This document shows positions 3,440 to 20,000 of a stretch of 20,000 bases of DNA, piece after piece. The notes under the pieces were generated by a model. The model was not told the DNA's origin and did not search any database. It saw only the letters and a list, made by a program, of their open reading frames with translations. Source of the DNA: an uncultured virus (IMG/VR IMGVR_UViG_3300014720_004424). Lineage: Duplodnaviria > Heunggongvirae > Uroviricota > Caudoviricetes. Position 1 is the stretch's first letter, and each line of letters starts with the position of its first letter. A program made the position numbers and the translations under genes. The stretch lies in the IMG/VR virus record IMGVR_UViG_3300014720_004424, one strand, 5' to 3'.

Positions 3440-6400
3440 ATGAAGCTTCGATGCGTACACCTTAGCGACATACACTGGAGAGGCCTCTCACGACATGAGG
3501 AGTACCGTGAGACGTTTGAGGGAATGTTCTCAAAGGTGAGAGAGCTTAATCCTAATCTCATTTTTATTGGTGGAGATATACTTCACACCAAGACACAGGG
3601 TATCTCTCCTGAGATTATCGACTGCCTCAATTGGTGGTTCACGGAGATGGCAAAGATATGTCCCGTTCACGTCATTCTAGGGAACCATGATGGCCTTATT
3701 ATGAACAAGGACAGGCAGGACGCGATCTCTCCTATCATCAATGCGCTAAACTCTCCAAATATTCATCTTTATAAGAAGTCAGGGGTCTACCCCACGGGAA
3801 TTCCAGGTTTTAACTGGTGCGTGTTCTCCTGTTTTGATGAGGAGGGCTGGCCCACAGTAAAGCCTGCCCCTGGTGAGATCAATATTGCGACGTTTCATGG
3901 TGGTGTTCTAGGATCAGTGACAGACATTGACTGGGACATTGACGGTGAAATTGACGTCTCATTTTTTAAGGACTATGACTTTGCTTTCTTAGGCGATATT
4001 CACAAGCTTCAGTACCTTGATCCTGAAAAAAGAGTGGCATATCCAGGCTCCACGATTCAACAGAACTACGGTGAAGGCACAGGAAAGGGCTTTTTATTCT
4101 GGGAGATTGACTCAAGGGATGAGTATCGGAGCACATTTTACGAGGTTGCACACAGCAAGCCCTTTGTTACTGTTGAGTGGGGAGGAACAGTCCCTGAGAC
4201 TGTGAAGAACTGCCTCAGCTATCCTATTGGCACTAGGTATAGAATCAGAACATCTTCTCAGATCTCGCACGCTGAGATGAAACAGCTGTTTGGAGAGCTA
4301 AAGGAGCTAAGAAAGCCCACTGAGATTGTTTTCAAGGACGAGCAGGACAAGGACACAAAGACTGCAGTCGTTGCAAAAAGTCAATACAGCAGAGAAAATC
4401 TTAGAAATCTTCAGACACAAATATCCCTGATGAAGGATTTTTACTCAACCGTAAAATTGTCAGAAGATGAGTGGAAGAGCCTTGAGATGCTGACAGCGAA
4501 GTATTTTAACGCTGCATCACACAGTGACTGCGTTAGAAATATCAAGTGGTCGATCAAGAAGCTCCAGTTTGACAATGTTTTCTCCTATGGAAAGGGAAAC
4601 TTAATAAATTTTGACTCTCTAAAGGGCATTACTGGAATCTTTGGTAGGAATAGGGCAGGAAAGTCCTCAATTCCAGGCACAATTATGTACGGTCTTTACA
4701 ACACCACAGACCGAGGCGCAATGAGCAATCTCCACGTAATCAACATGCGCAAGGGACACTGTGAGGTGAAGATGGACATCTCAGCAAATGGAGACTTTTA
4801 TCGTCTTGAGAGACAGTCTGTTAGAAAAAATAACAGGAGCGGTGGAGAAAGCGCTGTAACACAGCTAAATTTTTACAGCCTTGACGAGGATGGAAACATC
4901 ATCAAAGACTTGAATGGTGAGCAGAGGAGAGACACTGAAAAGTTTCTAAGGGCTGTAGTGGGCACTGCAGACGATTTTTTGATGACATCACTTGCTAGCC
5001 AGGGTGAGATGAATACCTTCATAAATCACAAGGCGTCCGCTAGAAAGACTATTCTCACAAAATTCTTGGACCTTGAAATCTTTGATGAAATGTGCTCGCT
5101 AGCGAAGGCAGACGCTGCTGCAGCAAAAGCGCTTCTTTCAAACGTTCCTGATCGGGACTGGGATGCGATGATCTCTGATCTTGTGACAGAAAAATCAACC
5201 AAGGAAAAGGAAAAGATCGAGGCTGAGAGAGCTCTTGATGTTCTTCGACTGAAGCTCCAGAAGGCGCAGATAGACCTTGCCACCTTTAACACAAAATCTC
5301 TCGTGACCCAGGAGGACGTTGACGAGAAGGCCGCACAGCTGGAAGCAAAGAGAAACGAGCTTTTGGCGTCTGAGGCTCACTGTGCTTCTCTTTCCAAAGA
5401 AGTCACTTCAATTGAGGAAAAGATCACATCGATTTCTGAGTTAAAGAAGCAATTTCCAATTTCTGACTTAAAGTCAAGGTTTGAAGAGCGCCAAGATCTA
5501 GAGAGAAGCCTCCTGGAGCTCAAACACGCTCTAGAGACAGAGAAAAATTCCGTCTCTGTTCACAAAAAGTCCCTCAAGCTCCTTGAGGAGGTGCCGTGCG
5601 GCGACAAGTATCCGACCTGCAAGTTCATTAAGTCTTCACACGAGAGCAGAAAGAAAATTCCAAGCCATGAGTCTAAGGTGACTGAGCTTGTTGATAGAAT
5701 TGCTGCGTCTGCGAAGACTCTGACTTCACTTGACAGAGAGAATTTGAAGGAAAAAATTGAGAAGTATAATCAAGTCTTGGAGAAGGAGCGAGATGGCCAG
5801 ATTCGACTTTCTACAAAGGAAATTGAGCTCACAAAAGCGAACAACAAGACCGCCTTGCTAAAGAGTATGATTCAGAGTCTCGAGGACGATCTCAATTCCA
5901 TGAGGCTCAGAGTCTCATCCTCCGCGGAGTCTGATCGTCTTCGGGCTGCGAGAAAGGTCATCTCGGACCTCACGTCTGACATCAATGAGAAAGATGCGCA
6001 AAGAATTGGCAGTACACAGATGATCGGCACACTAGAGTCAAAAATTGAGAGAGCGAAGTCTGAGAAGGAAAAGTACACCAAGCTGATCTCTGATTGGCGC
6101 ATATATGAGATCTTTATCGGAGCAGTCTCAAAGAATGGAATTCCTCTCAAGATAATGTCGACTATGCTTCCTGCGATTAACGATGAGATCTCAAAGATAC
6201 TCCAGGGCGTGGCAGGATTTACTGTGGAGCTTGTTGCTGATCCCGACACAAATGAGATGGAGATATACCTGAATTACGGTGACTCTAAGAGAATTGTTGA
6301 GTGCGGAAGCGGGATGGAAAAGATGATGGCGTCTCTTGCGATAAGAGTTGCCCTCATCAACACTACGACACTTCCCAAGTCTGATATGCTTATCATTGAC

Positions 6401-6580
6401 GAGGGATTTGGCGCTCTTGATGACATGAATGTGGAGTCGTGCACAAGGCTTCTGCGGTCCCTAAAGCACTGGTTTAAGAATATTCTTGTCATATCGCATG
6501 TTGACGCAGTCAAGGACGCTGTCGATAGCGTGCTTGATATCACTCACAAGGAGATGAATGCGAATGTCTTCTGCGAGTGA
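3440..6580 (+). CDS. Fused Mre11/SbcD nuclease - Rad50/SbcC ATPase (gp47-gp46-like)
   Basis: Phosphoesterase motifs SDIH, GGDILH, GNHD, FHGG, LGDIHK; Walker A GRNRAGKSS; Q-loop SQGE; long coiled coil; signature-like GSGMEK; Walker B LIIDEGFGALD; H-loop ISH. AGGAG at 3429-3433. Confidence 0.92.
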   Translation: MKLRCVHLSDIHWRGLSRHEEYRETFEGMFSKVRELNPNLIFIGGDILHTKTQGISPEIIDCLNWWFTEMAKICPVHVILGNHDGLIMNKDRQDAISPIINALNSPNIHLYKKSGVYPTGIPGFNWCVFSCFDEEGWPTVKPAPGEINIATFHGGVLGSVTDIDWDIDGEIDVSFFKDYDFAFLGDIHKLQYLDPEKRVAYPGSTIQQNYGEGTGKGFLFWEIDSRDEYRSTFYEVAHSKPFVTVEWGGTVPETVKNCLSYPIGTRYRIRTSSQISHAEMKQLFGELKELRKPTEIVFKDEQDKDTKTAVVAKSQYSRENLRNLQTQISLMKDFYSTVKLSEDEWKSLEMLTAKYFNAASHSDCVRNIKWSIKKLQFDNVFSYGKGNLINFDSLKGITGIFGRNRAGKSSIPGTIMYGLYNTTDRGAMSNLHVINMRKGHCEVKMDISANGDFYRLERQSVRKNNRSGGESAVTQLNFYSLDEDGNIIKDLNGEQRRDTEKFLRAVVGTADDFLMTSLASQGEMNTFINHKASARKTILTKFLDLEIFDEMCSLAKADAAAAKALLSNVPDRDWDAMISDLVTEKSTKEKEKIEAERALDVLRLKLQKAQIDLATFNTKSLVTQEDVDEKAAQLEAKRNELLASEAHCASLSKEVTSIEEKITSISELKKQFPISDLKSRFEERQDLERSLLELKHALETEKNSVSVHKKSLKLLEEVPCGDKYPTCKFIKSSHESRKKIPSHESKVTELVDRIAASAKTLTSLDRENLKEKIEKYNQVLEKERDGQIRLSTKEIELTKANNKTALLKSMIQSLEDDLNSMRLRVSSSAESDRLRAARKVISDLTSDINEKDAQRIGSTQMIGTLESKIERAKSEKEKYTKLISDWRIYEIFIGAVSKNGIPLKIMSTMLPAINDEISKILQGVAGFTVELVADPDTNEMEIYLNYGDSKRIVECGSGMEKMMASLAIRVALINTTTLPKSDMLIIDEGFGALDDMNVESCTRLLRSLKHWFKNILVISHVDAVKDAVDSVLDITHKEMNANVFCE

Positions 6581-6800
6581 AATTATTCCCCATGACTGCC
6601 CAGTGTGTGGTCTCTCAATGCGAGACATGGACGATGTTCTATCATACGAGGAGTTTGAGTGCTGCACAGAGTGCCAAGATAAGTTTGTCTTCAGGGACTT
6701 AAATGCCTGGATGTCAGGAAGCAGACCCAGTGAGTCTGAAATATTGGAGTTCAGGGAGCATCAGATGACTCGTGCTTCATATTTAGTAAGGAAAGTGTAG
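6564..6800 (+). CDS. Small Cys-rich putative zinc-binding protein
   Basis: CPVC...CCTEC motif. AAGGAG at 6548-6553 favours ATG 6564 over ATG 6558. Overlaps the end of the nuclease gene. Confidence 0.65.
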   Translation: MSSASEIIPHDCPVCGLSMRDMDDVLSYEEFECCTECQDKFVFRDLNAWMSGSRPSESEILEFREHQMTRASYLVRKV

Positions 6801-6809
6801 GAGATAAAA

Positions 6810-7178
6810 ATGATGATGAGTCGATACGATGCCCTGAGCACGTTGTGCAACACAACGTACGGTAGGTCGGGTTCACCTTCAGGCACGAGATCAGTGACCG
6901 CCTCATTTGCTGGGCACACTTTAACCCTTAAGTACACGACTGTATTTCACTACGCCGAAGAGCAAAGTCTCCAGATGCAGATGTCACATCTCGCTGAGGA
7001 GTCAATGTCGTATCTGGGTCAAATGATCTCTAAGCTCAAGGATGACTTCAAGGAGATGACCGGTGAGTCTCTCAAACTGAAGGAGATAAAGTCTACTGAC
7101 AGCGTAGAGCTAGTCTCAGCGCTCTCAATGAGAAAAGTGGCTTATTACAGAAGGATCCACATCCTCTCAGTGGAGTGA
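6810..7178 (+). CDS. Hypothetical protein upstream of terminase
   Basis: 122-aa ORF filling the gap; AGGAG at 6799-6803; ATATTTA motif variant at 6779-6785. Confidence 0.7.
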   Translation: MMMSRYDALSTLCNTTYGRSGSPSGTRSVTASFAGHTLTLKYTTVFHYAEEQSLQMQMSHLAEESMSYLGQMISKLKDDFKEMTGESLKLKEIKSTDSVELVSALSMRKVAYYRRIHILSVE

Positions 7179-7190
7179 TATACTTGTCAA

Positions 7191-8801
7191 ATGACAATCA
7201 CATCCAAGCCCGCACAAATTAAAGAAGTAATTAGATGCGGAAAAGACCCAGTCTACTTTATTAATAAGTACATTAGAATTCAGCATCCAACAAAAGGGCT
7301 GATACCCTTTCAGACGTACCAGTTTCAGGATGACTGCATTAATGACTTTTTAAAGCACCGTTTCAATATCATCTTAAAATCTAGGCAGCTAGGAATCTCC
7401 ACAGTCGCTGCTGCTTATGCAGTGTGGCTTGCCTCTTTCTACAAAGACAAGAATATTCTTATCATCGCGACTCGGCTCGCTGTCGCACAAAATTTCATTA
7501 AGAAGGTAAAAGTCGCGCTTAGATCAATGCCAAAGTGGCTTCTGATCCCAGAGATAACTATAAACAACAGGCAATCTGTTGAGCTAAGTAACGGCTCTTC
7601 CATCAAGGCGATTCCCACATCTGAGGACGCCGGCCGCTCTGAGGCGCTCTCACTGCTAATCGTTGATGAGGCGGCCTTCGTCAGGAACTTTGACACACTG
7701 TGGACCTCGCTCTATCCCACCATCTCAACAGGTGGACGTGCCATCATTCTCTCCACGCCAAACGGAATGGGAGGTCAGTACTATGATCTCTGGGTAAAGG
7801 CTGAGAACAAGACGAATGAGTTCAATCCCATCAAGCTGCCATGGGATGTCCATCCTGAGCACGATCAGGTGTGGTTTGAGAACGAGTGCAAGAACTTTAC
7901 AGATAAGCAGATTGCTCAGGAGCTCCTGTGTGATTTCTCAACCTCAGGAGACACGTATTTTAGCAGCGAGGATATTGAGAAATTAAGCTTTGGAATTAGG
8001 AATCCAATTGAGAGGTGGGGACCTGAGATGGGCGTCTGGGTCTGGAAGTACTCACTCGCGTCTCACAATTACGTGATATCTGCTGACGTTGCCAGAGGAG
8101 ACTCAGCTGACTACTCTGCTTTTCATGTGATAGACACAGATGAGTCTGAGGTTGTCTCCGAGTTTAAGGGAAAAGTACCACCCGATCAGTTTGCTGTAAT
8201 TTTGGCTGAGGCAGGGAAGCGATACAACAATGCGATGATATGTCCAGAGAGCAACACATACGGTTATGCAGTCAACATGAAACTTAGGGACATGAGCTAC
8301 AAGAATCTCTACTTTAAGAGTGATAGAGACAAGTTTAACGCTCTTTACAGCACATCTGAGGCTGACATATCAAAGGCAGGATTCACGACATCAGGACAGA
8401 CACGTGCTCAGATTCTAACAAAGCTCGAGGAAGTCCTCAGGAATGGAAGTATTAGAATCTACTCGTCTCGTCTCTATAATGAGCTAAAGACATTTATCTG
8501 GACAGGATCAAAAGCTCAAGCTCAGAAGGGCAAGAATGATGACCTGATCATGTCACTCGCCATAGGCGTGTGGCTCTACGATGCCTCGCCGACACACAAT
8601 AACACTGCAAAAGAGATAAATAGAGCAATGCTTGCAGGATTTGCTGTCAATACGACACGTAAAGACCAGATCATAAGTCCGTGGGCAGGAAAATCATACA
8701 ATCCTTTTAAGCCATTTCATGCGACAGATATACCCATGCTTCCTGCGTCAGGAAGTGCTGATCCCTCTCCGTATGGTGATATGCTGTGGCTATTGAGATA
8801 G
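7191..8801 (+). CDS. terL: Terminase large subunit (T4 gp17-like)
   Basis: Walker A KSRQLGIST, Walker B LIVDEAAF, coupling motif STPNG, nuclease motifs ISADVARG..DYS and NDDLIMSLAI. Confidence 0.96.
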   Translation: MTITSKPAQIKEVIRCGKDPVYFINKYIRIQHPTKGLIPFQTYQFQDDCINDFLKHRFNIILKSRQLGISTVAAAYAVWLASFYKDKNILIIATRLAVAQNFIKKVKVALRSMPKWLLIPEITINNRQSVELSNGSSIKAIPTSEDAGRSEALSLLIVDEAAFVRNFDTLWTSLYPTISTGGRAIILSTPNGMGGQYYDLWVKAENKTNEFNPIKLPWDVHPEHDQVWFENECKNFTDKQIAQELLCDFSTSGDTYFSSEDIEKLSFGIRNPIERWGPEMGVWVWKYSLASHNYVISADVARGDSADYSAFHVIDTDESEVVSEFKGKVPPDQFAVILAEAGKRYNNAMICPESNTYGYAVNMKLRDMSYKNLYFKSDRDKFNALYSTSEADISKAGFTTSGQTRAQILTKLEEVLRNGSIRIYSSRLYNELKTFIWTGSKAQAQKGKNDDLIMSLAIGVWLYDASPTHNNTAKEINRAMLAGFAVNTTRKDQIISPWAGKSYNPFKPFHATDIPMLPASGSADPSPYGDMLWLLR

Positions 8802-8854: not shown

Positions 8855-11800
8855 ATGGCAGACAAATACAATAGAAATCTCTTTGGAAGACTAACAAAGC
8901 TCTTTAGGTCTGGCCCAATTATTCGCCGCAAGGTGAAGGGCATGAACCAGAAGTCTGGTGGTGCCTCAACTGCTCTTGAGGTGTTTCGAAGCGCTCACAG
9001 TGATGTCTACAACAGCACTCTATCAGCTTATGGCGCATTCGATAGAATGTCGAGATACTCAGATTTCAGCGAGATGGAGTCGTGCATCTCCGGAGACACA
9101 CTCATTGCAACACCTGACGGCTATGTAGAAATTCAGGAGCTGGCAAAGAGATATGGTCCGGACGAGGCGTTTATCGTATATGCCTATGATCACCAGAAGA
9201 AGCAGATAGTGCCTGCGCTTGGAAAGCAGGCACGTAAGACCACTACTGCGATGTCATTCAAGGTGACATTTGACAGTGGCAAGGTTCTCATTGCTACTCC
9301 GGATCACAGGGTGATGCGTCGAGACGGCACCTACTGCGAAGTGCAGGATCTCAAGACGGGTGACTCGATGATGCCATTCTACCGCAGAGACTTCTTTGCC
9401 GGCGAGAACAAAGAGAGCTCAGACGGCTACTGCTGGATCTACACTATGGACTATAAGGGGTCCACTGTCAAGAACGGATGGATTGCCGAGCACAAGCTCA
9501 TAGCTGAGTGGGCGGCAGGTCGAAAAATCGATAGTGATGAGGTAGTTCACCACAAGAACTTTGTGAAGAGCGACAATCGTCCTGAGAACCTGCAGATTAT
9601 GACTGCAGAGGCACACAGGAATTATCACGCAAAGATCATCAATGGTAAGAAGTGGGACGCAGGCAGTAACGCTGAGTGGATTGAGAGCTTTAAGAAGCGT
9701 CATTCCGAGTTCATGCGCAATAACAATCCAGCTCAGCGTCGCGATGTGACCTTTGCAAAGATCCTGCAGGTCTGTGACAGGGATGGTTTCAATCTGTACA
9801 ATGTCTCTCGCGTCCTCGACTGTGATTTCCGCGTCATCGGCAGGAGACTAAGTGAGAACGGATTTGATAATTTCACCACCTTTGCGAAGGCCTATGATCC
9901 CGAGTGGAGGAATAACAGTTGGGACAATCTCGGAGATAAAAATCCAAGATATGACAGGACCCTGACATTTCAGGCTGTGTGTGATGCGTTTAGAGGACAG
10001 ACCTCTAAGCAGCTGGCTACTGAACTAGGCACAACGCCCATAAAGATTCTGAATCGTGTAAAGTCTGCAGGTTATAAGGGTTGGTCAGACTTTAAGGAAA
10101 ACTTTTATAATCACAAGGTTGTCTCTGTCGAACCGCATGCTGTAATTGATCTATACGATCTTACAGTTGATGGTTATAAAAACTACGCAACTGACAGCAT
10201 CATTGTTCACAATACCCCTGAGATTGCCTCTGCACTTGATATCTACGCGGAAGAGACAGTTGCTTCTGGACCAGACGGAAGAGTGCTGCACATATATTCA
10301 GACAACAGGAAGGTTCAGGAGCTTTTAGAGTCGCTCTTCTACGACACGCTTAACGTTGAATTTAATCTTGTCATGTGGGTGAGAAATCTCTGTAAGTACG
10401 GCGACTTCTTTCTCTTTAATGACGTGTCACCTGAGTACGGCGTCATAAACTGTGTTCCAATCTCAATCTCAGAGATTGAGAGAGAAGAGGGATTTGACTC
10501 CAAAGATCCGATGGCAGTTCGCTATAGGTGGATAACGCAGGGAAACCAGACACTTGAGAACTGGCAGGTCACTCACTTTAGACTTCTTGGAAATGATGCA
10601 TTTCTACCCTACGGATCCTCAGTCCTGGAGGCGGCAAGAAGAATCTGGCGCCAGCTGATCCTCATTGAGGATGCAATGCTCGTCTATAGAGTGATAAGAG
10701 CACCGGAGCGCAGGGTCTTCTATATTGATGTGGGAAATGTTCCACCTGAAGAGGTTGCAAACTACCTAGAGCAGGCACAGACATCGCTAAAGAGGAACCA
10801 GATCGTAGATAAGACCACGGGCAAGGTGGATCTTCGATTTAATCCAATGGCAGTAGATCAGGACTACTTCCTCCCTGTCAGAGGCGGAGAGACAGGAACG
10901 AAGATCGACACACTTGCAGGTGGGCAAAACACAGCAGCGATCGAGGACGTTCAGTACATTCAGAAGAAGCTTTTTGCCGCCCTCAAGATACCGAAGGCAT
11001 ATCTTGGATACGATGAGGAAGTCGGTTCCAAAGCAACTCTCGCGCAAGAGGACATACGATTCTCTAGATCGATTCAGAGAATTCAGAAGACCGTGCTCTC
11101 AGAGCTCAATAAGCTCGCCATGATTCATCTTTACTGCCATGGCTACGAGGGCGAGGACTTAATGGACTTCACTCTAAAACTCTCAAATCCAAGCTCAATT
11201 GCACAGCAGCAGAAGCTTGAGCTTATTAAGGCAAAGTTTGAGATCGCAGGAAACGCTCCCGAGGGCGTTGTCAGCAGAAGATGGATCAGAAAGAACATCC
11301 TCGACATGACAGATCAGGAGATAAAGCAGATAAAGAAAGAGCGCCTCGATGACAAGATGGAAGACACAGAAGTTGAGTCAACAGGTCAAGAGTCTTCTGA
11401 GGCAGGTGGCGAGACAGGTGGCGAGACAGGAGGCACCGAAACTGGCGGCGGTGAGGAGGCAGGTGGAAGTGCAGGAGGCCTCTTTAGCGCAGACATGCCT
11501 ACAGGTGATCTACTAACAGCGCTGCCGCCGAAGAGAAAAAACGTTCTAGCTGATTATGATGAGACGGACGATGAAGATGAACCAGAAGTATCAGTTTCTC
11601 TGAATCTATCAATTCGTGATCCTGAAGCACCTATCAAGGCACTAAACGCAATAAACAAGAGCAGTGAGCGACTCAATGCGTTTGGCGAGCCTCTTCGTGC
11701 GAAGAAGTCAAGAAGGGTCACAGACGGTCCGGGATCCACACACATGCCGAACTTTTCTAACATGCTAGGCTTAGGAAACACTCAGAGCTCACTTCGAGAT

Positions 11801-12064
11801 CCGTATCAGAAAAATTGGCTCAAGAATCCTTTGGGCAATCCGTTCGGCGAGTCCTTTGACATCGAGGGAGACGCCGCAATAAGCGATGGTAGTGCAACAA
11901 GGCTCGCTTCGGACGTCAAAAGGGCGATTGATAAGTTTTCTTCCTCCGTAAGAAACGCTAAACCCGCGATACTTAAGGAGGAGCAGACAGTCAAGCCTGT
12001 CTCTTCAGAAAAAACAATCGACATTGACCTAGAAAGACTTGGGAGTGACACACCAGATGAGTAA
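8855..12064 (+). CDS. Portal protein (T4 gp20-like), intein-containing; 692 aa after splicing
   Basis: gp20-type motifs LIEDAMLVYRVIRAPERRVFYIDVGNVPP, DYFLPVRGG..TKIDTLAGG and IEDVQYIQKKLFAALKIP; adjacent to terminase. Confidence 0.95.
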   Translation: MADKYNRNLFGRLTKLFRSGPIIRRKVKGMNQKSGGASTALEVFRSAHSDVYNSTLSAYGAFDRMSRYSDFSEMESCISGDTLIATPDGYVEIQELAKRYGPDEAFIVYAYDHQKKQIVPALGKQARKTTTAMSFKVTFDSGKVLIATPDHRVMRRDGTYCEVQDLKTGDSMMPFYRRDFFAGENKESSDGYCWIYTMDYKGSTVKNGWIAEHKLIAEWAAGRKIDSDEVVHHKNFVKSDNRPENLQIMTAEAHRNYHAKIINGKKWDAGSNAEWIESFKKRHSEFMRNNNPAQRRDVTFAKILQVCDRDGFNLYNVSRVLDCDFRVIGRRLSENGFDNFTTFAKAYDPEWRNNSWDNLGDKNPRYDRTLTFQAVCDAFRGQTSKQLATELGTTPIKILNRVKSAGYKGWSDFKENFYNHKVVSVEPHAVIDLYDLTVDGYKNYATDSIIVHNTPEIASALDIYAEETVASGPDGRVLHIYSDNRKVQELLESLFYDTLNVEFNLVMWVRNLCKYGDFFLFNDVSPEYGVINCVPISISEIEREEGFDSKDPMAVRYRWITQGNQTLENWQVTHFRLLGNDAFLPYGSSVLEAARRIWRQLILIEDAMLVYRVIRAPERRVFYIDVGNVPPEEVANYLEQAQTSLKRNQIVDKTTGKVDLRFNPMAVDQDYFLPVRGGETGTKIDTLAGGQNTAAIEDVQYIQKKLFAALKIPKAYLGYDEEVGSKATLAQEDIRFSRSIQRIQKTVLSELNKLAMIHLYCHGYEGEDLMDFTLKLSNPSSIAQQQKLELIKAKFEIAGNAPEGVVSRRWIRKNILDMTDQEIKQIKKERLDDKMEDTEVESTGQESSEAGGETGGETGGTETGGGEEAGGSAGGLFSADMPTGDLLTALPPKRKNVLADYDETDDEDEPEVSVSLNLSIRDPEAPIKALNAINKSSERLNAFGEPLRAKKSRRVTDGPGSTHMPNFSNMLGLGNTQSSLRDPYQKNWLKNPLGNPFGESFDIEGDAAISDGSATRLASDVKRAIDKFSSSVRNAKPAILKEEQTVKPVSSEKTIDIDLERLGSDTPDE
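9083..10213 (+). mobile_element. Intein (377 aa) with HNH homing endonuclease in portal gene
   Basis: Block A CISGDTLIAT, block B ATPDHRV, block F LYDLTVDGYKNY, block G IVHN followed by Thr+1. HNH EHKLIAE..VVHHKNFVKSDNRPENL at 9488-9628. Removal restores FSEMES/TPEIASALDIYAEE. Confidence 0.95.
11403..11430 (+). repeat. 12-bp tandem repeat (CAGGTGGCGAGA x2 plus CAGG) encoding GGET in the portal low-complexity tail
   Basis: Read directly from the sequence. Confidence 0.8.
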
Positions 12065-12917
12065 GGGACACAATAAAAAGAGAAATGTCGGAATAGTCTA
12101 TGAGCAGCTCGTCGCGACTGTTTCTAAGGCAATGGTCGAGAGTGATAGGCCTACCTCTGACAAAGCTCTAAAGATTATTAAGAGGTATTTCGCACCAGGC
12201 ACTGAGCTCTACAAGGAGTTTCGTCTATTTAATGCTCTTGTTCAGACTCATGTCTCAACTGATGCTCTTGCGTCTAGAATCCTGCAAGAGACGAAGGAAG
12301 CCGCCAACAAATACAATGTCGTTAAGCTTAGAAGTGAAAAGTCTGATCTCATCAATGAGATTAATAGATGCTTCAACAAGGACACATTTTACAACACGCC
12401 TGTAAAGAACTACAAGACACTTGCGACGATTCACGTCCTCATGGAGGAGTGGCGCAAAGATTATCCTGATGTAGCTCGCCGCGTGATGTACGAGTCAAAT
12501 TTGCACAAGTGGCTGCTTACACCAAAGTCCATCGATACGCTAGAAAGCCAAAAGACTCCGAGCGTCAACAATCTTTCTGTAAAGATTATGAGAGAGTCAT
12601 TTAACAGGAAGTATGATAAGCTGCTGAACGATAAGCAGAAAACACTTCTTAGATCTCTTGTCCTCGATCCAAATGGCAGTGCATCATCTGCTGAGACAAT
12701 TTCTAATCGAATGACGGAGCAGAGAGAGAAAGCAAAGGGTCTTCTCCTAAATTATGGATCGATATGTGAGAGTAGCCACGTCAAAAAGAAGATACCAGAC
12801 GCTGTAAGAGTTCTTGAGGGAATGGACACGAGTGACACATCTGACAAGAATATTGCCAGAATGATGACAGTCATACAGCTTTGCGACGAAATACTGGAGA
12901 ATAGAAATGAGCAATAA
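12057..12917 (+). CDS. Hypothetical head-module protein (286 aa)
   Basis: ATG 12057 overlaps the portal end, GGGAG at 12041-12045. N-terminus MSKGHNKKRNVGIVYEQL. Lies between portal and protease and overlaps both. Confidence 0.75.
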   Translation: MSKGHNKKRNVGIVYEQLVATVSKAMVESDRPTSDKALKIIKRYFAPGTELYKEFRLFNALVQTHVSTDALASRILQETKEAANKYNVVKLRSEKSDLINEINRCFNKDTFYNTPVKNYKTLATIHVLMEEWRKDYPDVARRVMYESNLHKWLLTPKSIDTLESQKTPSVNNLSVKIMRESFNRKYDKLLNDKQKTLLRSLVLDPNGSASSAETISNRMTEQREKAKGLLLNYGSICESSHVKKKIPDAVRVLEGMDTSDTSDKNIARMMTVIQLCDEILENRNEQ

Positions 12918-14586
12918 CCTTAAGCTTCTGACTGAGTGGCGACCCTTTGATTATTCGAAGGAGATGATTGAGGAGTCAAAGAGAGCGAACGGCGGCAAGA
13001 TTCTTTTGAAGGGAATTTTACAGAAGTCTGATACTCTCAATCAGAACGGAAGAGTGTATCCACGCCCCATACTTGAGCGAGAGGTTCGAAACTATCAGAA
13101 GTTCATAAATGAGAATCGTGCGTTAGGTGAATGTGTAGATCCAGAGACTCAGATAATGACAACGCGGGGGTGGAAGCACTTTGAGGATCTTGATCAAGAT
13201 GATAGAGTTTTCACATTAAACATCGAGACAAATGAACTTCATGAGCAACAAATAGCTCACATTACAAATAAGCACTATGTTGGTAAGATGCTGCATTTTA
13301 AGAATGCAGAGTCGCTTGACATGATGCTTACGCCCGATCATAAGGTTCTTGTGTTTGATAGATCTGGCAAGCCTACATACATGACGGCACAGACTGTGTA
13401 TGATCTATACAAGGAGGGATCCAGCTGGCTATCTCATTCAAGTCTAAAATTTTCATCTAATTGGTCCGGAAAGTCTCCTGAAGTGTACACAGTGCCGGGA
13501 ACAAACATGTCTATGTCTGCTGATGTTTGGGCAGCATTTCTTGGAATATATCTAGCAGAAGGTTGTGCCGACGGTGTAAAGCGAGGATTTAAGACATCTA
13601 ACGGCATTCAAATAACACAGAAAAAGACACAGACTATTGAAATGATCAGAGCACTTTTGTCTGAAATGCCAATAGAGTGGAATGAGAGAGTTCGAGCTGA
13701 TGGTGAAACTGTTGACTTTACATGCAGTCACGAAGGACTGCACGACTTTCTTTTTAAGCTAGGCGCTAGCAATACCAAGAGAATACCTGAAGATGTAAAG
13801 TCTTGGTCTGCAGAGACACTAGATATTTTACTAACATGGCTTTTGTTAGGGGACGGAAGAAATAGAGTTGTAAGAGGAAGGCTTGTTCGTGAGCTTTACA
13901 CGACATCTTCCGCTTTGGCAAATGATGTTTGCGAAATATTTCTTAAACTAGGCATCGGATCGAACGCACGTGCTTATCAACAAAAAGACAGAGAAATAGA
14001 GCCAGGTAGGATGATTCTCGCAGAGAATTCCAAGCCCATGTGGATTGTTTCTGAGAATCGTGCGGTCAATATTGGTCTAGACCTAAGATTTCTAAGTGTT
14101 GAGGAAGTGGACTATAGTGGAAAGGTTTACTGTGTCACAACGCCTAATGGCAACTGGATGGCAAAGAGACATGGAAAGATGTTTTGGACAGGAAACTGCG
14201 ACCACCCCGAGACGTCAGTTGTTGAGCTAAAAAATGCTTCTCATATTGTGCGTGAAGCCTACATGCAGGGCGATGTGTGTCTTGGATCAGTTGAGCTTTT
14301 AGACACGCCTAGTGGAAAAATCCTGCAGAGCTTAGTCGAGAGTGGAGTGACACTAGGCATCTCATCTAGAGGTGTAGGATCAACTCGTAGAGAGGGTGAT
14401 CATGACATAGTCCAGGATGACTTTCAGCTCATATGCTGGGACTTTGTCAGCGAGCCCTCCACGCCGGGTGCCTTTATGATGAAGGAGAGCAGACTTATTA
14501 AGCAGGGAGACCTCGACAGGCTCTTCAATAAGAGTGATAAGGTCGATAGGATTTTAAACGACATTATCTCATGGGAGAAAAAGTGA
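12907..14586 (+). CDS. Prohead core protease (T4 gp21-like), intein-containing; 204 aa after splicing
   Basis: NQNGRVYPRPILERE, RALGE/CDHP (catalytic His region), LLDTPSGKI, GISSRGVGS (catalytic Ser), WDFVSEPSTPGA. Confidence 0.95.
   Translation: MSNNLKLLTEWRPFDYSKEMIEESKRANGGKILLKGILQKSDTLNQNGRVYPRPILEREVRNYQKFINENRALGECVDPETQIMTTRGWKHFEDLDQDDRVFTLNIETNELHEQQIAHITNKHYVGKMLHFKNAESLDMMLTPDHKVLVFDRSGKPTYMTAQTVYDLYKEGSSWLSHSSLKFSSNWSGKSPEVYTVPGTNMSMSADVWAAFLGIYLAEGCADGVKRGFKTSNGIQITQKKTQTIEMIRALLSEMPIEWNERVRADGETVDFTCSHEGLHDFLFKLGASNTKRIPEDVKSWSAETLDILLTWLLLGDGRNRVVRGRLVRELYTTSSALANDVCEIFLKLGIGSNARAYQQKDREIEPGRMILAENSKPMWIVSENRAVNIGLDLRFLSVEEVDYSGKVYCVTTPNGNWMAKRHGKMFWTGNCDHPETSVVELKNASHIVREAYMQGDVCLGSVELLDTPSGKILQSLVESGVTLGISSRGVGSTRREGDHDIVQDDFQLICWDFVSEPSTPGAFMMKESRLIKQGDLDRLFNKSDKVDRILNDIISWEKK
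13132..14196 (+). mobile_element. Intein (355 aa) with LAGLIDADG homing endonuclease in prohead protease gene
   Basis: Block A CVDPETQIMTTRGW, block B LTPDHKV, LAGLIDADG helices FLGIYLAEG and LLTWLLLGDG, block F VYCVTTPNGN, terminal TGN followed by Cys+1. Confidence 0.95.
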
Positions 14587-14592
14587 ACCAGT

Positions 14593-15060
14593 ATGAGCAA
14601 GTTTAGCAGAAATGATCTGAAGGTCCTAGTCAAGGAGTGCCTAGTAGAGATTTTATCTGAGGGCATTGGAAGTGTCCCGGTGATAACTGAGAGGGCTGCA
14701 AGGACTCAACAGCCCAAGTCCGCTCCCACGCCACTTAGATCACAGAGCTCTGCACTCAACGCGATATCATACGGAAAGATTCCCGCTAAAGAGACAAAGG
14801 CAGTCACACCTTCAAGGGCGGTTCCTGCTATCAACGAGAGCATCAGGAGCATCACGTCAGATCCTGTCATGTCTGAGATATTTTCAGACACGGCTTCCAC
14901 CACACTGCAGGAGCAGATTCAGGCCGACTCTGCGCCGGGAAGAGCATCTGCTGCGGAGACTGCCGCCCCCGGTCAGGACATCTCCTCGATTGACATTTTC
15001 TCTGATGGTGCAAAAAATTGGGCCACTTTGGCTTTCTCTGATGCACCAAAGAAAAGATGA
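14593..15060 (+). CDS. Hypothetical protein, probable prohead core/internal protein
   Basis: 155-aa ORF after the protease; LKVLVKECLVEILSE N-terminus and several (I/L)xE motifs. Confidence 0.7.
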   Translation: MSKFSRNDLKVLVKECLVEILSEGIGSVPVITERAARTQQPKSAPTPLRSQSSALNAISYGKIPAKETKAVTPSRAVPAINESIRSITSDPVMSEIFSDTASTTLQEQIQADSAPGRASAAETAAPGQDISSIDIFSDGAKNWATLAFSDAPKKR

Positions 15061-15131: not shown

Positions 15132-15425
15132 ATGACAACTGTTCGCAAGCTTACACCCGCGCTCCTTAGAAAGATCGTTCTCGAGGAGAAGGCAAAGATG
15201 ATGAGAGAGAGCAAGAGCAAGGATCCGATCGAGGCAGGCGTGGAGTCTGCTGACAAGATCTCTGCTGCCGAGGTCGACGCCGAGGACCTTGCCTCGACAC
15301 TCGCGAAGGAGATCGATTACATGAAGGCCCTCAAGATTCACGAGAAGCGCCTCGCAGACAAGCTCCAGAAGATTCAAGAGGCCAAGCGCACAATTCTCGC
15401 TCGCGTCACAAAGAACTTTAAGTGA
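15132..15425 (+). CDS. Hypothetical helical protein, probable prohead core protein
   Basis: 97 aa; GGAG at 15122-15125; codon usage like the capsid gene; LLRKIVLEE N-terminus. Confidence 0.75.
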   Translation: MTTVRKLTPALLRKIVLEEKAKMMRESKSKDPIEAGVESADKISAAEVDAEDLASTLAKEIDYMKALKIHEKRLADKLQKIQEAKRTILARVTKNFK

Positions 15426-15980: not shown

Positions 15981-16562
15981 ATGCCGCACTACGCTAAATT
16001 TGGTGCGCAAGATTCGAGGGACGGTCTCGGCTACGGCCTGGTCGTCCCTCGTTTTCATGTGCAGCGGTCGCTGCAGTCCACCTATCCATACACTGATGAA
16101 GATCCTTATGAGTTTGATCTTGCTGATCTGGAGGACGATGAGGACACATTGGACGCCATAGGTCATAAGGTGCAGACGGGAAACTACATGACCAACGATC
16201 CGCTGGCGATCGGAAAAGTGAACCCTTTCTACTACGCTGCAGGAAACACAAAACTATCAGACTGCTTCTGGAGGACAGACGCAGTCCTCGCGGAGGTGGA
16301 GACGCTTGCTCGGTCCATGACACCCATTCCGCAGCTCTACAAGAAAAAGGGGCTCGGAACATCAGGCACAGGATTCAGCGGAAATGTGGGGCATGCCCAG
16401 TACCTCACACCTGGCAACTATCGAAGGACAGGGACCCTTCAGGGCTGGAGCCACGCGCCACCAGACATCGTTAATGATGAGGAGGAGGATGCAGATCTCG
16501 CGCCAAAGACGCTGTCTGACCTTCTCCTGTTTCTTCAGAAGCGATCAAGGGGTGAAGCGTGA
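15981..16562 (+). CDS. Hypothetical protein
   Basis: About 193 aa (ATG 15981 or TTG 15978); GTGA overlap with the next gene. Confidence 0.65.
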   Translation: MPHYAKFGAQDSRDGLGYGLVVPRFHVQRSLQSTYPYTDEDPYEFDLADLEDDEDTLDAIGHKVQTGNYMTNDPLAIGKVNPFYYAAGNTKLSDCFWRTDAVLAEVETLARSMTPIPQLYKKKGLGTSGTGFSGNVGHAQYLTPGNYRRTGTLQGWSHAPPDIVNDEEEDADLAPKTLSDLLLFLQKRSRGEA

Positions 16563-16786
16563 GTCGTCCAATCAATGTTGAGGTGCATTCAGATGACCCA
16601 AGCATCAGGAGCCTCGAGCAGATGATAAGAAGATTTCTTCGCAAGTGCAAGGACGAGGGAATCCTCCGTGAGCACTTGGAGCAGTTCCATCATGAGACGA
16701 AGGGCCAGAAGGAGCGTCGAAAGAGGCGCGAGGGAGCCCGACGGTGCAAGAAGAAGGGAAAGCCTGCTCGCACAGATGATAAGTAG
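16559..16786 (+). CDS. rpsU: Ribosomal protein bS21 homologue
   Basis: 75-aa basic protein following the bS21 pattern: VEV..SLEQMIRRFLRKCKDEGILRE..HETKGQKERRKRREGARR. Confidence 0.8.
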   Translation: MSRPINVEVHSDDPSIRSLEQMIRRFLRKCKDEGILREHLEQFHHETKGQKERRKRREGARRCKKKGKPARTDDK

Positions 16787-16808
16787 TGTCTGTGCCTGCA
16801 GGTTTTTT
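16759..16808 (+). terminator. Probable intrinsic terminator over the bS21 stop codon
   Basis: AAAGCCTGC (16759-16767) pairs with GCAGGTTTT (16798-16806, one G-U); GCACAGA (16770-16776) pairs with TCTGTGC (16789-16795); T6 run at 16803-16808. Confidence 0.55.
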
Positions 16809-16821
16809 AGCAGCATCAATC

Positions 16822-16828
16822 ATACTTA
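16822..16828 (+). promoter_or_regulatory. Putative late promoter ATACTTA upstream of scaffold gene
   Basis: The same heptamer occurs at 8838, 11969, 15430 and 17517, with one-mismatch variants at 6779, 7180 and 15076. Confidence 0.6.
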
Positions 16829-16859
16829 ATTACTGACCATAGCAGCAAGAGAGACAAAC

Positions 16860-18521
16860 ATGAGCCAGACACTTTATGAGGAAGCAATTGCTGAGGCGCG
16901 CCGTCTCACTGAGATGGCCGAGCAGAACGCTAAGAACAAGATCATCGACGCAGTCACTCCACAGATCAGGAAGCTGATCGAGCAGGAGCTCCTCGGCGCA
17001 GGTCCCCTAAATGAGGATGACCTCATGGATCCGACTGATGAGGAAGAGGATTAGGAGGACGACGACGATGCAGAGGCGGGTGGGGACATGGAGATGCCGC
17101 CCGAGGGACCTGAGACACTTGACATGGACTCAATGGGATCAGACCTGATGCCACCCCAGATGGCTGCATCAATGCCCCCACCCGCAATGGCACCCAGCGC
17201 CCCACCGGCCGGTGCCTCTCCTGTCTCCTCGCTTGAGGTCTCTGAGGACGGCGTCGAGCTCAAGGTGGGTGATGTTGAGATTGAGATTCACAGGACTGAG
17301 GCAGATGACGAGCTCGACGAGGCTGTGGCCCGACGACTTGGGAATGCCGCCTCCCGGAAGTTTAAGCAGGAGGTCGCTGCCCTCTCAAAGAGGCACGGAG
17401 TTCTCAAGGCCGCCATCGCAGAGGCGAGAAGCACGGGCACAGAGGACCAGAAGCTTCGGATCGCAAAAATATTCGAGTCTCTGGCGCGCGACGCAGTAAA
17501 GCTTCAGCGCCAGGTCATACTTAACGAAAGAACTGCGGGAGGTGTTCCTCTCGAGACAAAGCTATTAAGCTCAATTATCAAGGAGATGAAAGATATGTCA
17601 CGGAGGAATAACAAGAATGTTTTCGACTTCCTATTCGAGGCCGAAGAGGCAGACGATATGATGGCGCCCGCTGATGCGGCACCTGCTGATGAGCCTGCTG
17701 ATGCTGATGCGCCCCCTGATGCTGATGAGCCTGTGGAAGCCTCTCCGGAGGTGGAAGCTGCTTTGAAAGATCTTGCAGACGCACTTGGAATGGAAGTTGT
17801 TCCTAAAGGCACCGCCGAGCCCGAGGGCGAGGGCACTGAGGGCGAGGGCACCGAGGACGAGGGAGCAGTGGTTGAGATGGATGACGGCCAGACATACGAG
17901 ATCGCAGAGTCGGATCTTCGTCGTGAGCTCAAGCGCCTCCGCAGCCTCCACGAGGCAGACGCAGTCGCAGGATCCGGCGCCTCCTCCTTCGGCGGCGGCA
18001 AGGCGGGCGACGACATGTTTGTTGACGTCGACGAGGAGACGCTCCTCAACGCGCTCGCTGATGAGCTTGGATCCGTCAAGAAGATCAAGTCCACCGCGAA
18101 GATGGCAGAGGCCCGTGTGGCCAAGCCCGCCGTCAACGAGGCGGCAGTCCTCCGCCGCCAGGTGCAGGACTACAGAAATGTTGCTGATCAGCTCAAGAAG
18201 CAGATCGTTGAGATGAACCTCTTCAACGCGAAGCTTCTCTACGCGAACAAGCTGATGCAGAACAGAGACCTTTCAGCTAAGCAGCAGCGTGCAATTGTTG
18301 AGGCGATAGACAATGCCAAGACGCTACGTGAGGCGAAGCTTCTTTACAAGAGCCTGACAGACTCCCTCAACAAGCCCACCAATAGGGGTGGTCTAACAGA
18401 GGGGCGTGATCTAAGGGTGCTCGGTTCTTCCTCAAAGTCAGCCCGCTCAGGTCAGCCAGTGGCTGAGGGTGCGGCTGGAGCAGATCGCTGGGCGCTCCTA
18501 GCAGGAATCAAGAAAGATTGA
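16860..18521 (+). CDS. Prohead scaffold/core protein (gp22-like position), 553 codons, interrupted by in-frame TAG at 17052-17054
   Basis: ORFs 16860-17054 and 17088-18521 share one frame joined by *EDDDDAEAGGD. Acidic, helical protein directly upstream of the capsid gene; C-terminal MNLFNAKLLYANKL..AKTLREAKLLY..RWALLAGI. Confidence 0.75.
17517..17597 (+). promoter_or_regulatory. Internal ATACTTA motif, Shine-Dalgarno and in-frame ATG inside the scaffold gene
   Basis: ATACTTA 17517-17523, AAGGAG 17580-17585, in-frame ATG 17595, within a local AT-rich patch. Confidence 0.55.
17823..17864 (+). repeat. 15-bp tandem repeat encoding EGEGT in the scaffold
   Basis: GAGGGCGAGGGCACT, GAGGGCGAGGGCACC, then degenerate GAGGACGAGGGA. 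Confidence 0.75.
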
Positions 18522-18552
18522 GATCAATTCACTAACGTTAAGGAGATAGAAG

Positions 18553-20000
18553 ATGTCTAATAATTTCACACTTGAGCAGCTGACGGAGGGCATCCGCCAG
18601 CGACACCTCGGGACGCAGAATAAGCGTCTCATCGAGAAGTGGTCCCGCACGGGACTCCTTCGTGGACTCAATGAGACCGGCCGTGAGAACATGGCCCGCC
18701 TCCTCGAGAACCAGGCAGCGCAGGTCCTAAAGGAGGCCTCCACGCTCTCAACCGGCGGCGGAAACCTCACCTCCTCGGGCGATCTCCGCGGCTTCTCCAA
18801 CATCGCCTTCCCAATCGTTCGCCGCGTGTTCGGTGGCCTCGTCGCCAACGAGCTTGTGTCGGTCCAGCCGATGAGCCTTCCCTCGGGTCTGCTCTTCTAC
18901 TTAGACTACACGTACGGCAACACGGTGGGCGACGACGGCTCGGGCACAGGCACCTACGTCGCGGGCCAGTCGATCTACAGCAGCCCAACCGGTCGCGGAA
19001 TCCGCTCCGGATCGCTCGCTGTGGGCGGACAGTACGACCTCGTCGGCAGCGGCTTCTCCCGCGTGCACAAGCAGACGGGAACTGTCACGCTCCTCGCATC
19101 AGGCGCCTTCGGCGGAACGACAACGTTCAGCAACGCAAGGGTCCTCCACGCGACGGGCTCCGACGGCAAGCTCCTCGGCTTCGATCCTCAGGTCGCTGAC
19201 GCGGTCGAGGGCAACAGCAACGGCCCCGGCGCAGCAACGGGCGACGGCGTCTACACGGCGGTCGTCGTCAGCTACCCCGCTCTCCACTTCTCAGCCTCAG
19301 ACGGCACGATGGTGAAGGACTTCGTCCTCCACAGGGCTGGCGGCGGCGCGGGCACAGTGTACAAGGGCGTGTCTCCCACGATCCAGGCAGGAGGCTCCAA
19401 CGTGATGAACGTCCGCCGCCTCAATCGCCTCGGCACGTGGAGCGGCAACGGCTTCGTTGACAATCCCCTCGTTCAGCCCGGCGACGCGAATGCGGCGCTC
19501 CTCATGGTCGTCTCAGGCGCGAACGCTGCAGCCTCTGTTGACACCCTCAACGTTGACTTCGTTGTCGCTTCAAGCCTCAACGTGGACAGCTCTGACGGCT
19601 CCACACTCACGGTTCCCGCGTTCGAGTCCAACATGGCCGATCAGGGATCCGCGACCTCGCCCACGATCCCCGAGATCGACATCAAGGTCGAGTCCATCGC
19701 CGTCACCGCGGTCACCCGCAAGCTCCGCGCGAAGTGGTCCCCCGAGCTCGCTCAGGACCTCAACGCGTACCACAGCCTCGACGCTGAGGTGGAGCTCACG
19801 CAGATCCTGTCCGAGCAGATCGCCATGGAGCTCGATCGCGAGATCCTCAACGACCTCCTCACGCAGGCGAGCGGCGCGAACTATTACTGGAGCCGCGCTC
19901 CTGGCAAGTTCGTCAACAAGGCGACCGGCGCAGAGGTCCTCCGCGCGACCTCGGCTCCCGGCCCGGCCTTCACCGGCACGGTCCGCGAGTGGTACGAGAC
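18553..20000 (+). CDS. Major capsid protein (T4 gp23-like), 3'-truncated by the window
   Basis: Translated by hand: MSNNFTLEQLTEG..LIEKWSRTGLL..LLENQ..FPIVRRVFGGLVANELVSVQPMSLPSGLLFYLDY..TRKLRAKWSPELAQDLNAYHSLDAEVELTQILSEQIAMELDREIL. AAGGAG at 18540-18545. No stop before the window end, so the ORF track omits it. Confidence 0.97.
   Translation, partial: MSNNFTLEQLTEGIRQRHLGTQNKRLIEKWSRTGLLRGLNETGRENMARLLENQAAQVLKEASTLSTGGGNLTSSGDLRGFSNIAFPIVRRVFGGLVANELVSVQPMSLPSGLLFYLDYTYGNTVGDDGSGTGTYVAGQSIYSSPTGRGIRSGSLAVGGQYDLVGSGFSRVHKQTGTVTLLASGAFGGTTTFSNARVLHATGSDGKLLGFDPQVADAVEGNSNGPGAATGDGVYTAVVVSYPALHFSASDGTMVKDFVLHRAGGGAGTVYKGVSPTIQAGGSNVMNVRRLNRLGTWSGNGFVDNPLVQPGDANAALLMVVSGANAAASVDTLNVDFVVASSLNVDSSDGSTLTVPAFESNMADQGSATSPTIPEIDIKVESIAVTAVTRKLRAKWSPELAQDLNAYHSLDAEVELTQILSEQIAMELDREILNDLLTQASGANYYWSRAPGKFVNKATGAEVLRATSAPGPAFTGTVREWYE

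Follow-up and report, generated by a model that had tools for sequence, protein, structure and literature searches.

A candidate internal translation start in the scaffold-position gene of uncultured T4-like phages

Does the gene directly 5' of the major capsid protein gene in a T4-like head module encode one scaffold protein or two? Both the assembly of a phage head and its size are determined by scaffold proteins, whose ratio to the coat protein matters for correct assembly. The question is raised by a 20,000-nucleotide stretch of DNA, here called the window, from an uncultured virus (IMG/VR record IMGVR_UViG_3300014720_004424), which by its gene content in Pfam and PHROGs is a piece of a distant T4-like phage. 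The scaffold position is occupied by an open reading frame (ORF) of 553 codons at 16860-18521 on the plus strand, and an initial annotation, made from the window by itself, had seen in it a nested gene with its own promoter-like motif, ribosome-binding site and in-frame start. We think it highly probable that this gene encodes two in-frame proteins with a common C-terminus, and no less so that translation of the shorter one initiates internally at 17595.

The in-frame ATG at 17595 opens a 308-codon ORF beginning with MSRRNNKNVFDF (17595-18521, plus strand). It has the same frame and the same stop codon (18519-18521) as the long ORF, and its product would have the N-terminus (M)SRRNNKNVFDFLFE. 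The ATG is preceded, at a distance of 9 nt, by a candidate Shine-Dalgarno (SD) sequence AAGGAGAT at 17580-17587 on the plus strand, contained within Lys-Glu-Met codons of the long frame. The complete string AAGGAGATGAAAGATATG (17580-17597) resembles the leader of the capsid gene, AAGGAGATAGAAGATG (18540-18555), as had been pointed out in the initial annotation; the SD boxes of both are the identical 8-mer, that of the capsid gene lying at 18540-18547 on the plus strand. The region 17520-17640 (plus strand) around the internal start is poor in G+C (0.38-0.43), and the dip to 0.38 is at the level of the true intergenic gaps 16800-16860 and 18510-18570. The ATACTTA at 17517, the SD-ATG string and the in-frame ATG 9 nt past the SD were all found where that annotation had placed them, and its G+C counts by hand (25/60, 24/60, 37/60 and 44/60) were exact on recount. 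In a lone sequence an SD-ATG pair is within chance, and its weight comes from relatives. AAGGAG is not rare in the window (23 copies versus 15.5 expected), and AAGGAG followed after 4-10 nt by a start codon occurs eight times, twice at called gene starts and twice in-frame inside genes.

Relatives were collected in two retrievals. The first, in viral contigs, yielded 89 loci. As the peptide of the site served as one of two search patterns here, its presence is partly ascertained, whereas the choice of codons is not. The second covered metagenome contigs and used C-terminal peptide patterns only, and hence was not selected on the site. The two collections comprise 169 loci: 118 unique sequences covering the site, 37 duplicates, 10 loci cut off by contig ends, and four failures of the anchor search. 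All 118 unique sequences contain the same pattern, that is, AAG (114 sequences) or AGG (4 sequences), GAG, AT, a spacer, and ATG. The distance from GAG to the start codon is 9 nt in 112 of them and 6 nt in the other six, and no sequence among the 118 spans the site without the SD-ATG pattern. Three of the four loci with a failed anchor were inspected by hand, and AAGGAG and ATG are present there as well. The second retrieval contributed 49 new unique sequences, with GAG in 49/49. This codon is retained even in scaffold genes that seldom use it, accounting for 9 of the 79 Glu codons in locus L057 and 23 of the 87 in L085.

A tree of 61 unique sequences was built with FastTree, and synonymous changes were counted on it by parsimony in columns that are degenerate and at least 90% conserved. 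The two SD codons have 0 and 0 changes, against 4-10 in the six other conserved Lys columns and 5-15 in the 14 other conserved Glu columns. Zero changes were observed in three of the 90 conserved degenerate columns, namely the SD codons and one more. The Met within Lys-Glu-Met is variable (M/I/L), but the one downstream of the spacer never changes. The 6-9 nt between the SD and the ATG vary freely (ATGAAAGAT, ATGAGAGAA, ATAATAGAA, etc.). Because the SD codons are synonymously invariant, and because the Met after the spacer is fixed while that of Lys-Glu-Met varies, we read the conservation at this site as a nucleotide-level signal rather than a peptide motif. Conservation of the SD and the Met together with reduced synonymous variation was the test proposed in the initial annotation, and both have been borne out.

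The predicted strength of the internal SD is that of the capsid gene. With an anti-SD 9-mer, the mean duplex energy is -9.0 kcal/mol at the internal start (n=61), -8.5 kcal/mol at the capsid gene (n=61), and -5.3 kcal/mol at the start of the long form (n=47); the internal SD of the window has -8.5 kcal/mol. The RNA from -30 to +20 of the internal ATG folds weakly, with a mean of -4.2 kcal/mol versus -9.7 kcal/mol in other 50-nt windows of the same ORFs, and in 37 of the 61 sequences this stretch belongs to the least structured tenth of the ORF. In the phage considered here it is the weakest of all 50-nt windows of the ORF (-2.3 kcal/mol versus an ORF mean of -12.2 kcal/mol). The site thus has every feature of an SD-led initiation region: anti-SD pairing, a spacer of 5-10 nt, a start codon, and weak local structure.

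We propose that the long form, 553 residues, would start at 16860 from a weak ribosome-binding site, and the short form, 308 residues, would be made by ribosomes recruited to the ATG at 17595 by the strong SD at its 9-nt spacer. The same bases would serve as Lys-Glu-Met codons in the long form and as the internal SD, within RNA that is A+U-rich and weakly folded. The short form would be translatable from any mRNA spanning the gene, and the capsid gene has an SD equal to its own. For these two reasons the short form is probably the scaffold species present in abundance, and its synthesis would keep pace with that of the capsid protein. Judged by SD strength only, the short form is likely to be more abundant than the long one. 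The initial annotation had called the long form minor, which agrees with the weaker SD of its start, the ratio itself being an extrapolation from the duplex energies. The long form, which has in addition a conserved N-terminal helix and about 245 residues, would probably be the scarcer of the two and serve a function of its own in the head core.

Upstream of the internal start there is a candidate promoter box. The sequence ATACTTA occurs five times in the window versus 1.04 expected, always on the plus strand, and five copies were reached in one of 200 shuffles. Together with a single ATATTTA there are six ATA[CT]TTA (ATAYTTA) boxes, all six on the plus strand and each 17-88 nt upstream of an ATG. 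They start at 6779, 8838, 11969, 15430, 16822 and 17517, upstream of the ATGs at 6810, 8855, 12057, 15470, 16860 and 17595, respectively. Thus a promoter-like ATACTTA (16822-16828, plus strand) lies 38 nt upstream of the ATG of the long form, and the internal one (17517-17523, plus strand), whose promoter-like nature is likewise putative, lies 78 nt upstream of the ATG at 17595. There is a near match, ATACTTG, at 7180-7186 before the terminase gene. A composite ATACTTAAGGAG, in which the box abuts an SD, is situated at 11969-11980, within the terminal part of the portal gene; in loci L058, L060, L063, L064 and L084 it recurs 21 nt upstream of the internal scaffold ATG, besides the box at 75 nt.

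The box is shared with the relatives. In most of them ATATTTA or ATACTTA is found 20-45 nt upstream of the start of the long form, and in 313 kb of their sequence ATA[CT]TTA is strongly biased towards one strand, with 143 copies on the plus and 11 on the minus strand. It occurs at most 130 nt upstream of the internal ATG in 36 of the 61 sequences, at 63-78 nt in 32 of the 61, compared with 15 copies in 91 kb of the remaining parts of the scaffold ORFs (0.02 per 130 nt). At the aligned codons ATA-NTT-A is present in 44 of the 60 aligned sequences. The Ile of the box column is encoded by ATA in 43 of 45 cases, whereas ATA makes up 18% of the Ile codons in these genes overall, and the codon after it is CTT, ATT, GTT or TTT, that is, the residue changes while the last two bases remain constant; an A follows. 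The conservation of the motif, which the initial annotation had also put forward as a test, is therefore seen in this form, and the same box precedes the long-form start and other gene starts.

The capsid gene has no box of its own in the window: from 17523 to the ATG of the capsid gene at 18553 the sequence is free of ATACTTA, and in 55 of the 57 relatives the interval from the internal to the capsid ATG contains no box. The initial annotation had remarked on this absence and had postulated an internal late transcript producing the short scaffold together with the capsid protein. The distribution of boxes is consistent with such a transcript, which itself is a prediction. The two exceptions, L003 and L005, have a box 27 nt before the capsid gene and lack the internal one. 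Other relatives are devoid of both, and hence the complementarity of the internal and capsid boxes is only partial. A gp55-like late sigma factor (phrog_234) was found in the records of two of five relatives (E-values 5e-7 and 3e-6), both at least 90% complete. The nearest record, a 5.9-kb fragment (G001), has no match to the scaffold region or phrog_234.

Taken on its own, a promoter function of the ATAYTTA box is likely, and the box may be the late-promoter box of the clade. An internal promoter upstream of 17595 is a somewhat weaker proposition, towards which we lean on the sequence patterns described. With less certainty than the internal start, the transcript from the internal ATACTTA would carry the short scaffold and capsid genes. 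In a fuller scenario, offered tentatively and with somewhat less than even confidence, an uncultured aquatic T4-like clade would set its scaffold-to-capsid ratio by an intragenic late box and a capsid-grade SD acting through a bicistronic mRNA, the long isoform would be a rare nucleating or portal-side species, and the first 15 residues of the short form (MS-basic-...-F-L-F-E) would be a cleavable N-terminal leader of the kind carried by neighbouring head proteins.

Several observations count against this interpretation. At the aligned position, 16 of the 60 aligned sequences have no box. The late box of T4, TATAAATA, has no copy in the window, where the box is ATACTTA or ATATTTA. The portal-gene box ends 10 nt before the ATG, and a box of the -10 type would leave almost no leader there. 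A scan for sigma-70-type promoters made no call on the plus strand near the internal site. The gp55-like factor was found in only two of the five records, the other three being 40-78% complete. As for the internal start, unique sequences are not the same as independent lineages, and the two collections overlap, with 16 sequences in common; the SD sits in a conserved peptide island (IIKEMKDMSRRNNKNVFDFLFE); and expression of the short form is deduced from sequence alone.

The live alternative is that the internal start is real and has no promoter, the short form being produced only from mRNA that begins upstream of 16860. We regard this as possible though rather unlikely. ATA-NTT-A would then be kept for another cause, for example, by constraint on a Val-Ile-Leu-Thr-Glu helix combined with codon context. 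It accords with this possibility that all 16 aligned sequences lacking the box retain both SD and ATG, that the box differs from the T4 late box, and that an internal SD requires no promoter of its own. However, constraint of this kind sits poorly with the use of ATA in 43 of 45 Ile codons (versus 18%) and with the third base of the next codon, which is T whichever hydrophobic residue is encoded. Moreover, the same 7-mer precedes real gene starts, exclusively on the coding strand, and the capsid gene is without its own box in 55 of the 57 relatives.

Another possibility, which we consider improbable, is that there is no internal initiation at all, and the island is a protein signal of the full-length scaffold, either a pair of cleavage sites (IKE, LFE) or a binding motif, with the SD-like bases being a by-product of Lys-Glu-Met. 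The peptide is indeed conserved as [IVL]-[KR]-E-[MI]-x-x-M-S ... F-D-F-L-F-E, and AAGGAG is common in the Lys/Glu-rich window. The T4 prohead protease cuts after L/I-x-E (PMC9026906). In the window I-K-E is encoded at 17577-17585 and L-F-E at 17631-17639; as both fit this motif, the conservation of the island is in part at the protein level. However, a protein signal leaves the codons free, as in every other conserved Lys or Glu column, where AAA and GAA come and go (4-15 changes), and at the site they never do (0 changes; 118/118). Nor does it account for an invariant Met after the spacer next to a variable Met in Lys-Glu-Met, for a spacing held at 6 or 9 nt, or for the selectively unstructured region. 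Finally, internal SD-like sequences promote frameshifting in some bacterial genes, and an A-run follows the SD in a few relatives (L061, L067, L086), but with no conserved slippery sequence, no conserved ORF of another frame starting nearby in the window, and a freely varying 6-9 nt followed by an invariant ATG, an action on elongating ribosomes (pausing or stimulation of frameshifting in place of initiation) is very improbable.

In this window only, the long frame is broken by an in-frame TAG at 17052-17054, which the initial annotation had overlooked. Read with genetic code table 11, the ORF of the window is 17088-18521 (477 residues), not 16860-18521. The long frame is uninterrupted at this place in all full-length relatives. 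In all three public runs with contigs spanning the site the base at 17052 is G, giving GAG (Glu), and the long contigs of these runs (16800-18053 or 16842-17222) differ from the window by exactly one letter each. Two metagenome contigs almost identical to the window, L097 and L098 (2 and 3 differences, respectively, in 3,906 positions), have GAG as well; these assemblies may be non-independent of each other or of the source of the window. A pattern search of viral contigs for this stretch gave no match. Thus the TAG is probably either a private variant or an error of assembly, which would make the long form a protein of 553 residues. Reassignment of TAG to Gln was rejected, as TAG terminates at least four other genes of the window and hence is an ordinary stop here. 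Programmed read-through, or a scaffold split by an amber codon, was rejected given the G at 17052 in the three runs, L097 and L098.

The protein itself belongs to no Pfam or PHROGs family (16860-17051 and 17088-18521 were searched). Its assignment as a scaffold rests on the position of the gene, the acidic repetitive sequence, and a structural model of helices and disordered linkers. The gene order is that of gp22: between the genes of the gp21-like protease and the gp23-like capsid protein, directly 5' of the latter. In the model of the short form, eight helices are joined by acidic disordered linkers of low confidence, with a mean predicted local distance difference test score (pLDDT) of 62. 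A fold search with the short form returned weak matches, some of them named scaffolding protein (best template modelling score, TM, 0.29), which with a low-confidence model is uninformative. No similarity to T4 gp22 was found when the alignment of relatives (A1) was compared with it by hhalign (probability 0.09, E-value 0.58). The description of the gene as gp22-type in the initial annotation therefore holds by position and protein character, and not by sequence.

Among cultured phages, homologues with the N-terminal helix and the C-terminal domain were found only in Flavobacterium phage immuto (413 residues) and Microcystis phage Mel-JY01 (366 residues), and neither has the central island or the internal start. 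As these shorter homologues have no central island, the nested start appears to be a feature of the clade with long scaffolds. The same nested start occurs in some relatives on contigs of jumbo-phage size, L004 (318,267 bases), L027 (284,429) and L067 (267,118). Since the prohead protease is a separate gene (12907-14586), the additional 245 residues of the long form are not a protease, and therefore must do something else.

Two head-region proteins, encoded at 14593-15060 and 15132-15425, have basic amphipathic leaders ending in V-K-E / L-V-E and V-L-E, which resemble capsid-targeting propeptides. By eye the N-terminus of the short form is similar to them. However, when a profile of six leaders was run against the 61 scaffolds, the top-scoring position coincided with the internal Met in only four, all with negative scores, and the resemblance to a capsid-targeting-like leader is therefore unsupported.

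The known system most similar to this one, named already in the initial annotation, is the C/Nu3 pair of phage lambda (C 4418-5737 and nu3 5132-5737 in the lambda record), where a shorter scaffold protein is made in frame from an internal start and has a common C-terminus with the product of the longer gene. Lambda is not T4-like, and its long form is the S49 prohead protease, whereas here the protease is separate and the additional part belongs to no family. To our knowledge, the lambda arrangement includes no promoter box within the gene. In herpesviruses (UL26/UL26.5) an intragenic promoter provides an abundant short scaffold, co-terminal with a rarer long form; there the virus is eukaryotic, the long form is the protease, and translation involves no SD. 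In phage Mu (genes I and Z) and the Mu-like Pseudomonas phages, the scaffold is nested inside the protease gene (PMC4378225). Again the long form is the protease, and the evidence is not SD conservation at synonymous sites.

In the T4 record, gene 21 (protease) is annotated with an internal start of translation, and gene 17 with internal transcription plus in-frame translation. The short gp21 starting from Met45 is reported to be essential (PMC9026906). Given the nested products annotated for these two genes, the nesting of head genes is well established in T4, and it extends to intragenic late transcription. However, T4 gene 22 has a single annotated product, and the gene considered here is twice as long and has no detectable similarity to gp22. 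In T4 a late promoter consists of one TATA box of 8 bp, located roughly a helical turn 5' of the transcription start (PMC2988020). The box described here is similar in being short, A+T-rich, the sole conserved element, on the coding strand, and just upstream of late genes; it differs in sequence (ATA[CT]TTA versus TATAAATA), and its promoter activity is putative. In the literature within reach, to which subscription journals largely did not belong, no nested product was reported for a T4-like scaffold gene, and no ATACTTA late box. What we describe is probably the C/Nu3 logic transferred to the head module of a T4-like phage whose protease is encoded separately, plus a late-promoter box of its own.

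Nested scaffolds have been known where the long form is the protease, as in lambda, Mu and herpesviruses, and here the candidate is in T4-like phages with a separate protease. The additional domain of the long form provides a handle on head-core nucleation in distant relatives of T4, very large ones included. Gene callers would list one protein of 550 residues where two are probably made. For more than 100 environmental sequences the second product can be recognised by a simple rule: AAGGAGAT, 6 or 9 nt, and ATG inside the conserved Lys-Glu-Met island. More generally, invariance at synonymous sites can reveal hidden starts without expression data, and the ATAYTTA box is a testable late-promoter candidate for an uncultured clade.

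The remaining genes of the window fit a T4-like head module. The large terminase gene (7191-8801) is followed by a gp20-like portal gene (8855-12064) with an intein splicing domain and an HNH nuclease, and by a gp21-like prohead protease gene (12907-14586, plus strand; Peptidase_S77 2.6e-19, phrog_207 2.5e-42), which contains an intein too (LAGLIDADG_3, Intein_splicing). Thus inteins are present in both the portal and protease genes. Five small genes separate the protease gene from the acidic ORF in the scaffold position. A gene for ribosomal protein S21 (16559-16786, Pfam 4.6e-9) lies directly 5' of the scaffold gene, and the gp23-like major capsid protein gene (18553-19998, plus strand; Pfam Gp23 1.4e-36, phrog_138 5.2e-39) leaves the window. 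The closest cultured phages, all of them remote, are immuto, Rhodothermus phage RM378, and Mel-JY01. Near-identical DNA comes from lake-water metagenome runs and two metagenome contigs (121 and 123 kb).

Within the scaffold gene there is a second stretch of low synonymous change, 18417-18450, with the consensus CTCGG.TCGTCTTCCAGATCAACCCGGTCGGC across relatives. It is situated about 100-135 nt upstream of the capsid ATG, and its Ser codon TCA at 18438 is invariant in 56/56 sequences. Between the stop codon of the S21 gene and the box at 16822, a GC-rich palindrome followed by a T-run (gcctgcaggtttttt) at 16795-16812 looks like a terminator, but was not called by the scan. The S21 gene, rpsU, is found also in the head module of Mel-JY01, and in relatives L006 and L009 it occupies the same place; the juxtaposition of a phage S21 with late genes that have perfect AAGGAG leaders is perhaps not fortuitous. 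Finally, a single ORF of 1046 residues (3440-6580) encodes an SbcD-like phosphoesterase domain fused to an SbcC/Rad50-like ATPase, the T4 counterparts of which are two genes, 47 and 46.

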